This document shows positions 3,001-11,915 of a DNA stretch of 12,419 nucleotides, one piece after another. Source of the stretch: Candidatus Iainarchaeum sp. (GTDB lineage Archaea > Iainarchaeota > Iainarchaeia > Iainarchaeales > CSSED10-239). The notes under the pieces are model-generated. The model was given only the letters and a program-made list of their open reading frames with translations, was not told where the DNA came from and ran no database searches. The first letter of the stretch is position 1; every line of letters starts with the position of its first letter. The stretch covers positions 1 to 12,419 of the forward strand of contig PWLL01000101.1 of NCBI GenBank assembly GCA_003559395.1, in the 5' to 3' direction. The translations under genes and the position numbers were made by a program.

Positions 3001-6000
3001 CTCCACTCAATGGAATGCTTCAGAAAGACATGCGGACGGTCCGCATCTGTATTTTGCTGTGACCATTCGTTTTCGCTGCAATCGATAGGATAAGCAAGTA
3101 TGCCATCGGATGCACCGATGGAAAGCTCTTCTTCAATACATGGACCACCATCCCAATCCATAGAAGAGCCGGTAAAAGCAGGTGGTTGCCTTTGTTCTCC
3201 CACCCAAGGGTCTTTTGACAAATACCACTGCCCCGTGCCACCGGGTCTTCCAGTATACGGGAAATCCTGAAGATACCGGGTTCTTGTCAATACGCGACTC
3301 CTTTCATCATAGGTAGCCACCTCCCCAAATCCAACAAAGCCGCGCCCTCCAAGCTGGAGCTTGGCGCCCGAGTAAAAGTACCTCACCGACGGGTTGCTCT
3401 CTGAACTGCTGTTCGAAGTTTCAACATGTGAAACCAGCCATAGGGGGGCCTTTAACTCAATTAGGCTCAACCCATCAATACTACCACCGACTTGAATAGG
3501 ATAATCTGACTGATAAACAGAGTCATCAGAGAGGGATGAGTAATCGATTTCCGTCCTTACTCCGTGCCCGTCTTCAATTCCACGTATAACTGAAGAGGGA
3601 ACAAACCGTTTCTCGGGCGCCTCTGGAGAGCCGTACGGTTCATCGTGGCGTCGCTGAATTGCGTCGACTACGAAGTCGTCCTCCAAGCCTACGGAATTGA
3701 GAATAGCCACTGCATCAACAACCCCATTGTCCAGCAGATCCAGGGTAATTAGCTGCTCATCATCAAACGGCTCAACGCTTGCGACCCCAACACAGCCGCT
3801 ATGCATCAATTGGTTGTCGATCTCATCGGTCTCCCAGGGCCACGCATACCAAGCATAATGAGGAACCTCAGAGTCGGTACAGTGCGTCGTATCAATGGCC
3901 AGTAAGTCGGGATACCCATTGCCACTATAGTCCGCAATAATCACCGAACCCCGATTATAAGATTCTACATCACTTTCCATTGGCGGTAGTGCGAGATAGC
4001 CTGTAGACCCGTTACTCAGTAACACCTGAACCTCCATTTTCCCATCAGCGTCCCTCAGTATCGCCAGATCTGTGTACCCACTACCATTGAAATCCATTGG
4101 AACTATCGTATCCACTACACTCACGCCAGGAAGGCGAGCATGCTGCTCCAATTTGTAATTGTCATCTTCAAGCTCTGTGTAGTAGATGGCTACCCACGTG
4201 TCGTGAATATAGTTGTCTTCACTCTGGGCACTGACCTGGCTAGGTGAAATCTGACCCGAGCCAACCCTCTCTTCGTTGGAGTCAGGATCGAGACATTTAA
4301 CCGCGCTTTCTCCACGTAACAGCAGACCGGCATTGCCATCATGGTTCATGGCTATAGCTGGCGTACCAATGGGGTGAAATTCCACCTCACCCGAACAGCC
4401 CGGCTGTTCAGGTAATTCAACCTCAATATCAATAACGTGAGGCCCATCTAGATTCACCTCACCCGGACCAGAAAGATTACGGTAAACCCACCCTAGAGTC
4501 GCCTCCCCCTGCTCAGAAACCGCAGTCGAACCGGTCTTTATTAATACCAGATCACCATAGCCACTCCCATCCAAGTCAACCTCACTAAACGTGAATTCGT
4601 CATCGAAATTTTCGAACGACGCAGGCGGATGACCTACGACCTCGGGCTCCTCAGTAAATTGCTGTTCACTCTGACTCCACGCCTGATAGTAAATGGCATA
4701 ATCCGATGAGCCCTCGGAACAATTGTTCGCTACATAGACGATGCCCTGCTTACCATCCCTGTCAAAATCGATAAGCTGCCATACTGTATCTTCACTGCCT
4801 TGCATCCCGCAGGCAGCTGCAACAGGCTCGCTCATTCCCAGCTCCTGCAAACTTCCTTCCGGATCGCTATTGGCAATATCCGAGAATCGTGCTTCGCCTA
4901 CCTCCGACGACAATACAACGACTTGCTGTCGCTTGCCTGGCCTTACACGCCCAGCTTGAGCACCATGAAACTCATCAATCGAGATCACAGGATCCGGATC
5001 AAAGGGCCCCTCGGTCCAGTCTGCCTTGGTTCCATGATCTCTTTGCCAATCAAATATAGTCGGGAAGAAACATTCATCGTCATCTTTAGAACCCCAGCAC
5101 TCAGTCAACGCGACCAATAGCAATTCGTGCCGATAGGGTTCTTCATGTGACTGGTAGTCGAGATGATACTGACGTACTGCTGACCCAACCGAGCCGGAAG
5201 AGTAAACCCTTTTCAACCGCTTGCTACTCTTTATTCGATTGCCTGCAAGATAGCGGGCCCCTTCTTCCGGCAAGTTGGCATCCACATATTCAAATTCGAT
5301 CTGCGCAAACGGTTCTTGGCTAGGGTCGACTTGAAGATTCCCCGTATATTCAATTTTCTTGATTAGCCATTCGATCCATTCACCCTCATCTGATTCCAGC
5401 CCGGGTTGAATGTAATGAAAGCTCATGAAGTTTCCGGCCGAGTCTATTACACGACTGATTGGCCAAGCGTAGGTGACCAACTCGCCCTCAGCGTCCAGTG
5501 CCACGATATCTGCAGAATCATCGCTACCCGCACTCCCAGGATCGTATCCATACGTGCTGACAGTGCCGTCGGACTGATGCACCTCGAAGTAGGTTGCATG
5601 ACCGTCTGCCCCTATCACCCCCAGGATGCGAGTAAGATCATCAACTTCGAATCGGTACTCCACCACCTGTAATCCGGATTCTCCCACACCGTCACCTACT
5701 TCTCCGACCTCGAATAGGCGCTTTCCGTCAAGACAGAACTCATCATCTGATGTGATAGCGACTCCGGCTTGTTGACCATCTTGCAAGAATGTCTTTCCAC
5801 ACCTCGTGATGCTTGATATTCCCGAGATGTTCCATCCAACGCCCATTGGGCCGTCTTCCAGACTCTGACTATCGTATTGAAACGCGAGCTCCGGTGCCAT
5901 TCCGCCTGAGCCCGGGACCGTCATTATGGGAATACGATACTGCAGTGCACCGGATTGCCCAACATCTATCTCACCCCGCGTTGCGCCTACCCGGGCGCTA

Positions 6001-11915: not shown

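Follow-up and report, generated by a model that had tools for sequence, protein, structure and literature searches.

The contig PWLL01000101.1 (GenBank assembly GCA_003559395.1, listed as Candidatus Iainarchaeum sp.) was analyzed over a stretch of 12,419 nt, called the window here, and revealed one giant open reading frame (ORF) on the minus strand. With a probability of roughly 0.7, we read its product as a Sec-exported, single-chain polymorphic toxin of the BC type known from toxin complexes (Tc), which works independently of a TcA subunit and binds its targets via an N-terminal array. A TcB-like part, consisting of an SpvB domain and an FG-GAP propeller, is fused to a TcC-like RHS shell, which by homology is predicted to enclose a variable C-terminal toxin, encoded off-window. 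In front of this cocoon stands a stalk of about 1,950 residues, composed of two internalin-like leucine-rich repeat (LRR) solenoids, about six fibronectin type III (FN3)-like beta-sandwiches, and a family-specific all-beta module, here named the U module. The resulting order is signal peptide-LRR-FN3-LRR-FN3x4-U-SpvB-FG-GAP-RHS; the predicted mass exceeds 430 kDa, about half of which is the adhesin-like stalk (Table 1).

Translation revealed a minus-strand frame free of stops over 3,971 codons, from ATG 11915 to window position 3, an openness that cannot have arisen by chance. A program-made list of ORFs contains no frame of this size, since frames running off an end are left out of it. The window edge truncates the 3' end of the frame, whose final complete codon ends at position 3, and codons 1-1976 correspond to window positions 5988-11915. 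The start codon (11915-11913) lies 7 nt behind a Shine-Dalgarno-like GAGG motif (11926-11923), and a start further upstream is impossible because of an in-frame TGA (11927-11925). The protein begins with a putative signal peptide, comprising the n-region MR, a 14-residue h-region (LNLIATLIVLPLVY) reaching a Kyte-Doolittle mean of 2.57, and the c-region QTVHA, whose V and A occupy positions -3 and -1, so that cleavage is predicted at VHA/EE (21/22). Inspection of the signal peptide revealed neither a lipobox Cys nor a twin-arginine motif, and hydrophobicity analysis detected no further transmembrane-like or hydrophobic segment elsewhere in the 3,971 aa. A similar signal peptide opens all seven family members aligned (family alignment A2), with the Ala at the predicted -1 position invariant. 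In the mature N-terminus behind it (aa 22-104), for which Pfam gave no match, G85, C87, and C92 are invariant in the same alignment, and conservation across it extends to the first beta-sandwich and the LRR cap. An internal start instead of ATG 11915 is very unlikely, because the start, the signal peptide, the N-terminus, and the continuity with the cocoon are conserved in homologues. A preliminary description of this DNA, made from the sequence without database searches, had proposed a classical Sec signal at aa 1-21 and had named an internal Met as the competing start; hydrophobicity, the -3/-1 rule, and conservation in seven family members uphold the former, and the conserved N-terminus of the homologues speaks against the latter.

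Within the cocoon, Pfam analysis revealed FG-GAP_3 at aa 2608-2672 (34 bits, cut-off 26.9), TcdB_toxin_midN at aa 2770-2883 with 16.7 bits, below its cut-off of 24.8, and RHS repeats near aa 3415 (RHS_repeat, 34.9 bits), in addition to the clear SpvB match. The RHS core (PF03527) was detected at aa 3919-3949 (window 69-161), where it is clipped by the window edge and reaches 20.8 bits, below the cut-off of 27.9. The toxin domain falls outside the window, because the latter ends about 30-70 residues short of the position at which homologues carry the autoprotease motif (GRxYDPxLGRFxxxDP). For comparison with solved structures, the cocoon half was combined with 15 homologues in a cocoon profile. 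Its best solved relative was the TcdB2-TccC3 fusion (E 5e-65), followed by T6SS (type VI secretion system) Rhs cores, bacterial teneurin-like proteins, TcdB1/YenB (propeller), YenC2, mosquito SGS1, and teneurins; against the propeller region of TcdB1 and YenB, the family profile gave E values of 1e-33 to 1e-31. The single cocoon sequence barely reached any Rhs core, and at E 1e-3 it retrieved neither TcB nor TcC from the PDB. Since the single sequence barely reaches Rhs cores while the profile finds TcdB2-TccC3, the cocoon is rightly called Tc-like, but it belongs to a distant branch.

The extension in front of the cocoon had been given as 1,976 residues in the preliminary description, which is correct to about 10 residues, as Pfam places SpvB from aa 1986 onwards. 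Its listing of LRR, Fn3-like, and unassigned modules could be confirmed as well, namely by Pfam for the LRRs, by AlphaFold and Foldseek for the FN3-like modules, and by the lack of any match for aa ~1400-1935. This also applies to the extension's adhesin-type composition and to its uninterrupted connection to the Tc-like cocoon, which lie in one open frame and are conserved in homologues. LRR_4 (84 bits) and LRR_EndoS matches were obtained within aa 273-460 and 632-950, and both blocks consist of tandem 22-residue LRRs with caps, as is typical of internalins. NCBIfam internalin models gave E values of 1e-21 to 1e-24 with scores far under their full-length cut-offs, which indicates similarity at the level of the fold only. 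A chunked self-comparison revealed that the LRR blocks are paralogous (aa 270-352 vs. 610-690, E 3e-11; aa 362-467 vs. 850-959, E 4e-10), as are the sandwiches following them (aa 426-530 vs. 918-1020, E 4e-6), the duplication thus taking in the caps and the beta-sandwich behind each block; self-BLAST of the whole extension gave the identity match alone. As Pfam fn3 did not match any of the individual putative FN3 modules, their assignment is based on a structure model. The alignment-based AlphaFold model of aa 986-1420 (pLDDT 71) displayed four beta-sandwiches, for which Foldseek returned tandem FN3 arrays (probability 1.0, E 1e-11 to 1e-8), e.g., LAR FN3 1-4 (E 2e-11) and fibronectin 7-10, and each of the sandwiches within aa 986-1400 closes with a conserved AC.RDR..GD.CS disulfide hairpin (alignment A4). 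No Pfam match was found for the candidate sandwich at aa 105-235. Altogether, the extension would comprise about six FN3-like sandwiches.

The U module is located directly before SpvB in every family member and is characterized by the motifs TGW.FYW...YDL.AFW.TY...W.PVWYYS, DHY.G.W, GFD..G.PIW, K.ASLHDIRY, and C...LTWFTDD.F...YRF.L. Its AlphaFold model is all-beta, with a low confidence (pLDDT 56), and no counterpart of aa ~1400-1935 was found in Pfam, among PDB sequences, or by Foldseek. Foldseek matches to an integrin, TcdA4, and a sialidase carbohydrate-binding module were rejected at a template modeling score of ~0.1 on a model of this confidence. A ZU5 autopeptidase preceding SpvB (cf. 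Zhang et al.) was likewise rejected, as there was no Pfam match and no conserved CxH in alignment A1.

Word-seeded searches of 5.8 billion proteins with aa 961-1976 resulted in no match, nor did those with the N-terminal alignment A2, where the candidates were probably crowded out by LRR words. When 1.84 billion representative proteins were scanned exhaustively with HMMER, only 16 were hit by the U module. Apart from fragments, these proteins have 3,778-4,326 aa (up to 4,342 aa in the family with the Marinicella member included) and a common architecture from the signal peptide to the RHS core, and alignments of the whole window protein run continuously across the junction of U module and SpvB. 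Homologues of the same full-length architecture, whose taxonomic spread and neighborhood the preliminary description had suggested mapping, constitute a gammaproteobacterial family with small ORFs downstream and no usher genes within 10 kb in six loci. The closest relative is a metagenome protein of the Joint Genome Institute (36% identity); further members come from Wenzhouxiangella sp. XN79A, a metagenome-assembled genome (MAG) of the Marinicellaceae, and other gammaproteobacterial and Lysobacterales MAGs, and one is encoded by a cultured organism, Marinicella meishanensis NBU2979 (4,342-aa ORF; NZ_JAIOUV010000001.1, locus L010 5057-18085). The loci of Marinicella and others were obtained by a locus search with the narrower alignment A6. 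That the long frame is an artefact, produced by mis-assembly or by the joining of two genes while translation really begins near SpvB, is effectively refuted by 5.9 kb of stop-free frame upstream of SpvB and by the same N-to-C architecture, continuous over the U-module/SpvB junction, in independent assemblies from different samples; nothing positive speaks for it, though none of the collections searched contains the protein of the window itself.

The cocoon half alone retrieved 99 single-chain proteins with SpvB, FG-GAP, and RHS parts, about 2,000-3,500 aa in length and from many phyla. The following counts refer to the 90 proteins whose SpvB position could be determined. A crude signal-peptide test was passed by 76, and the number of residues before SpvB was at least 100 in 24, at least 400 in 15, and at least 900 in 4 proteins, with a maximum of 1,293. 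Several homologues display 1,000-1,300 aa of immunoglobulin (Ig)-like, LCCL, CARDB, or PD40 modules in this position. Three of the longest extensions contain PD40, Big_1/CarboxypepD_reg, and NBR1-Ig/LCCL/CARDB/Big_7, respectively; two of these three proteins have a C-terminal toxin domain of an antibacterial kind, Peptidase_M15_4 or GH-E nuclease, and the third is without a toxin family match. In comparison, the extension measures 1,976 aa in the window protein and about 1,500-1,800 aa in its relatives. What is new is the family of giant proteins itself, which is small and stems from marine-type gammaproteobacteria, together with the longest extension seen, in the window protein, an LRR-FN3 duplication particular to the family, and an orphan module invariably placed at the cocoon entrance.

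The general type is not new. In a catalogue of 2012, Zhang, de Souza, Anantharaman, Iyer, and Aravind described TcdB/TcaC-type polymorphic toxins, a class of wide phyletic spread in which a signal peptide combined with SpvB, propeller, and RHS represents a trafficking type (PMC3482391). The window protein likewise has a signal peptide, as judged by heuristics and conservation, and SpvB, an integrin-like FG-GAP propeller, and RHS in one polypeptide, the variable toxin and the immunity gene being known here entirely from homologues. It differs in that SpvB follows the signal peptide in the definition of this class, whereas about 1,950 residues including the orphan module are inserted here; the class itself is an entry of a computational catalogue, with no member whose export or delivery mechanism has been demonstrated. 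Given this catalogue, the 76 of 90 homologues with signal-peptide-like N-termini, and the same logic in bacterial teneurin-like proteins (PMC13018210), the preliminary description's view that the combination is undescribed is not supported. Its statement that TcB proteins start at SpvB without a signal peptide is valid for canonical insecticidal TcB, but not for the wider family.

Classical Tc proteins, namely Photorhabdus TcdB2-TccC3 and Yersinia YenB-YenC2 (PDB 4O9X, 6H6E, 4IGL), share SpvB, the propeller, and the RHS shell with the window protein and presumably also the mechanism, i.e., encapsulation with autoproteolysis. However, their B and C chains are separate, start at SpvB without a signal peptide, and need a TcA pentamer, and the canonical subunits are released by lysis (PMC10847048), in agreement with the preliminary description. 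In the window protein, on the other hand, everything is on one chain, headed by a Sec signal and a huge N-terminal array, and its homologues' loci are devoid of TcA. Genes for TcA, T6SS, TpsB, usher, or type I components were not found within 10 kb in six homologue loci, the whole genomes not having been searched, and the sole neighbor seen in the window itself is nadD, upstream, with no TcA partner there. The gene could still encode the B-C part of a tripartite (ABC) toxin that docks by its propeller on a TcA encoded elsewhere, the extension being mere decoration. All the cocoon parts down to the weak TcdB_toxin_midN match would be in place for this, the best solved relative is a TcdB2-TccC3 fusion, and natural B-C fusions occur in genomes (Song et al. 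2021, PMC7861908). Yet a BC unit in the periplasm would sit apart from a cytoplasmic TcA, which adds to the missing TcA genes, the signal peptide, and the failure of the single cocoon sequence to find TcB or TcC in the PDB, and we regard this explanation as improbable.

The toxin character is deduced from the C-terminal ends of the homologues. In all six full-length loci, a small ORF of 116-227 aa was identified directly downstream of the giant gene, either overlapping it or within 150 nt. None of these ORFs could be assigned to a family, apart from a weak Metal_resist/LTXXQ match below the cut-off for i108, next to the gene of homologue P0108. The five that were compared, the Marinicella ORF being left out, are mutually unrelated, and three of five examined have a signal peptide of their own. 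The C-termini of the family diverge right behind the conserved NRYSYVMNNPLSYTDPSGY cleavage region, and the autoprotease motif is present in homologues P0104, P0105, P0109, and P0001; a precomputed Peptidase_M23 match exists for P0001, its place in the protein being unchecked. Together, divergent C-termini and unrelated downstream ORFs read as the signature of a polymorphic toxin-immunity system. Sub-threshold matches to DUF637 (CdiA pretoxin) were obtained for P0108, P0109, and the Marinicella protein, the latter with an additional weak match to DUF4329 (Tox-JAB-2), and none for P0106.

These DUF637 matches fall on a hydrophobic stretch, rich in Gly/Ala and glycine-zipper-like, that spans about 150-200 residues between the RHS cleavage region and the variable tip in four homologues (Table 1); it could be a membrane-insertion or entry element. 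The product of the ORF after the P0108 gene (locus L007, 15175-15726) revealed a signal peptide and weak LTXXQ/CpxP-like (Metal_resist) matches, so that, instead of being a typical immunity protein, it may belong to the envelope-stress type.

A similar organization has been described for bacterial teneurin-like proteins (Raoelijaona et al. 2026; PMC13018210; PDB 9IFO, 9PT5), which have a Sec signal of the signal peptidase I or II type (SPI or SPII), diverse N-terminal adhesion modules, a propeller, and a YD shell filled with a polymorphic toxin, followed by a downstream immunity gene; the delivery machinery is known in neither group. They are built from an FN-plug, an NHL propeller, and a YD shell, with a TIP domain in 96%, instead of which the window protein has SpvB and FG-GAP. 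The window protein gave no NHL match in Pfam and does not display the teneurin-like superfold, and the cocoon profile aligns to 9pt5 and 9ifo over the YD shell only (profile positions 1301-1809). Mosquito SGS1 (PDB 8FJP), a single chain of 3,364 aa, likewise combines several receptor domains with a Tc-like Rhs/YD shell (PMC9935623), the shell being related to the window cocoon with E 2e-16 by profile, but it is eukaryotic, without a classical signal peptide, and carries other receptor domains (propellers, a carbohydrate-binding module, a lectin) and a helical cargo. Such proteins raise the question of whether the window gene encodes mainly a surface adhesin or cell-cell recognition protein, in which the shell is structural and the C-terminus is not a delivered toxin. 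Teneurins and SGS1 do re-use such shells for adhesion or receptor roles (PMC13018210, PMC9935623), LRR and FN3 modules make up about half of the protein, and delivery machinery was not found within 10 kb of the homologues. A cleavable signal peptide without a membrane anchor, lipobox, or second hydrophobic segment does not fit this, nor do the polymorphic C-terminus with its unrelated adjacent small ORF in homologues, typical of toxin-immunity pairs, and the recognizable toxin domains on related cocoons. A mainly adhesive function is thus unlikely.

RHS-shell toxins are also known to act outside the T6SS. Bcn-A of Xanthomonas perforans is a cell-free RHS bacteriocin with an immunity gene, whose activity was found in the supernatant at >100 kDa (PMC7259588), and WapA proteins of Gram-positive bacteria are exported polymorphic toxins (PMC12704120). 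Both are much smaller than the window protein (about 1,400-2,300 aa), have no SpvB and no LRR/FN3 array, and Bcn-A needs accessory ORFs. That the window protein is itself a T6SS Rhs effector would agree with the relationship of its shell to T6SS Rhs cores (8h8b, 8qja, 7q97). We consider this very improbable, as Pfam analysis of the window protein revealed no PAAR, VgrG-binding, or clade domain, a Sec signal peptide is unsuited to cytoplasmic loading on a T6SS spike, T6SS genes are missing near homologues, and SpvB with the propeller points to the Tc branch.

For a Sec-exported, TcA-independent BC toxin, we propose the following course. The signal peptide would take the unfolded chain through SecYEG and be cut off after VHA21. 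The shell would then fold in the periplasm, where, by analogy with TcC and Rhs structures and with the motif seen in homologues, the aspartyl protease of the RHS core would free the toxin inside. Exit from the cell might follow a route not encoded beside the gene, candidates being the type II pathway, vesicles, and lysis. Outside, the LRR/FN3 array, possibly along with the orphan module, would bind the target surface and so do the receptor-binding job of TcA, a role that the preliminary description had suggested for the extension and that is plausible. The toxin would leave at the propeller end and enter the target, while the producer would be protected by the small protein encoded directly downstream, as suggested by the arrangement in six full-length homologues. 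Passage through the inner membrane, folding with cleavage, and immunity are backed by sequence, homology, and conserved gene order; the three steps from exit to entry we infer. Other bacteria are the likeliest targets.

Several points weigh against this interpretation. The window includes neither the toxin domain nor the autoprotease motif or the immunity gene, and toxicity of the window gene is deduced from homologues alone; their DUF637 and DUF4329 matches are under the Pfam gathering scores. The signal peptide was called by heuristics and family conservation, not by a trained predictor. No route of export across the outer membrane is evident, and by our own reasoning a type II secretin may not be wide enough for the cocoon once folded. 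The LRR/FN3 modules might bind the producer's own envelope and not a target, and that this envelope is diderm is deduced from the relatives Wenzhouxiangella and Marinicella and from Tol/TonB genes beside a homologue.

A bolder variant, which we offer tentatively and consider doubtful, is that the orphan module and the LRR/FN3 stalk replace the whole TcA pentamer, the stalk binding the receptor and the module opening the propeller gate and carrying the cargo across the outer layers of the target. If true, the orphan module would be a built-in substitute for TcA and represent a new mechanism of protein translocation, reached via the Sec pathway. Cocoon-forming RHS/YD toxins are well understood only when delivered by a TcA syringe or a T6SS spike. 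TcdB/TcaC-type toxins and bacterial teneurin-like proteins form a large class with Sec signals and without a delivery partner, which has been catalogued. The window family is an extreme case of this class, with a conserved module of no recognized fold welded to the cocoon entrance. Owing to the cultured member Marinicella meishanensis NBU2979, export and cargo hand-over from a diderm cell can be tested directly. If the stalk sets the target specificity, the family would be a natural example of retargeting of a Tc-type capsule, of interest for engineered protein delivery.

Table 1. Features of the giant gene and its surroundings in the window, and of homologue loci (last four rows)
Feature	Position	Strand	Evidence
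Giant ORF, at least 3,971 codons	1..11915	-	Translation without stop, start context
In-frame TGA (11927-11925) overlapping GAGG (11926-11923)	11922..11927	-	Sequence
Putative Sec/signal peptidase I-type signal peptide, aa 1-21 (MRLNLIATLIVLPLVYQTVHA / EE)	11853..11915	-	Hydrophobicity, -3/-1 rule, family conservation
Conserved mature N-terminus, aa 22-104, predicted helical stretch, then G-x-C...C loop	11604..11852	-	Family alignment A2
First candidate beta-sandwich, aa 105-235, FN3-like by sequence pattern alone	11211..11603	-	V.W...Y.V.V...G.Y...VR pattern in A2
LRR block 1, aa 271-500, capped N- and C-terminally, ~6-7 22-residue repeats	10416..11105	-	Pfam LRR_4, LRR_EndoS, LRR_14; repeat spacing
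FN3-like module after LRR block 1, aa 501-610	10086..10415	-	Paralogy to module after LRR block 2
LRR block 2, aa 611-985, ~13-14 repeats, paralogue of block 1	8961..10085	-	Pfam, NCBIfam, self-comparison, repeat spacing
Four tandem FN3-like beta-sandwiches, aa 986-1400	7716..8960	-	Family alignment A4, AlphaFold, Foldseek
All-beta U module, aa 1401-1935 (~530 residues)	6111..7715	-	Alignment A1, AlphaFold
Proline-rich linker from extension to cocoon, aa 1936-1976	5988..6110	-	Sequence; length varies in A1 and A5
SpvB/TcaC N-terminal domain, aa 1986-2170	5406..5960	-	Pfam PF03534, E 1e-13, 51.5 bits, cut-off 22
FG-GAP/integrin-like beta-propeller and TcdB mid-N-like stretch, ~aa 2300-2900	3216..5018	-	Pfam, family profile
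RHS/YD-repeat shell, ~aa 2900-3971	3..3215	-	Pfam RHS_repeat, Pfam RHS, TIGR01643
nadD (nicotinate-nucleotide adenylyltransferase) 3' end, upstream neighbor outside the system	12280..12419	-	NCBIfam NF000840 and TIGR00482, C-terminal model positions, E 5e-8
C-terminus with Gly/Ala-rich stretch, P0106	L005 21020-22219		
C-terminus with Gly/Ala-rich stretch, P0108	L007 13823-15022		
C-terminus with Gly/Ala-rich stretch, P0109	L001 21485-22684		
C-terminus with Gly/Ala-rich stretch, Marinicella protein	L010 16883-18082		

Several homologue loci contain genes of mobile elements. The copy of Wenzhouxiangella sp. XN79A (L008 1-9831, JAAWWS010000128.1) lacks both of its ends and is bordered on either side by a gene for an ISL3-family transposase, of identical length (413 aa) in both cases, an arrangement that looks like a composite transposon or a disrupted gene; proteins of this kind are not mentioned in the paper on predatory Wenzhouxiangella (PMC7691419). 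In two independent assemblies (L002 224-1873 and L003 196-1845), genes for a tyrosine integrase and for an AlpA-type regulator immediately precede the gene of P0104, which suggests an integrative island as its carrier. The region behind the P0109 gene (L001 23531-32586) contains two pairs of IS3-type transposases and two Y1-transposase-like genes, along with a series of small ORFs of which one is Imm33-like; in its arrangement it is similar to an array of orphan toxin/immunity cassettes. In two loci, a Ser/Thr protein kinase with tetratricopeptide repeats (about 870 aa) adjoins the giant gene, on opposite sides (L005 23053-26993 and L010 105-4830). It is accompanied in both by proteins of 254-260 aa of unassigned function, and in L005 also by an extracytoplasmic function (ECF) sigma factor; a regulatory link between kinase and giant gene is possible.

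In the window, nadD is followed by a weak terminator-like hairpin (12205-12218) and a spacer of about 360 nt before the giant gene, in which Rfam and promoter scans revealed no Rfam match and no sigma-70 consensus match. The giant protein is very acidic and poor in lysine, with a net charge of -181 over the cocoon half and a lysine content of 0-2.5% in every region, a composition that would fit a salt-adapted host with a proteome signature of the halophile type.

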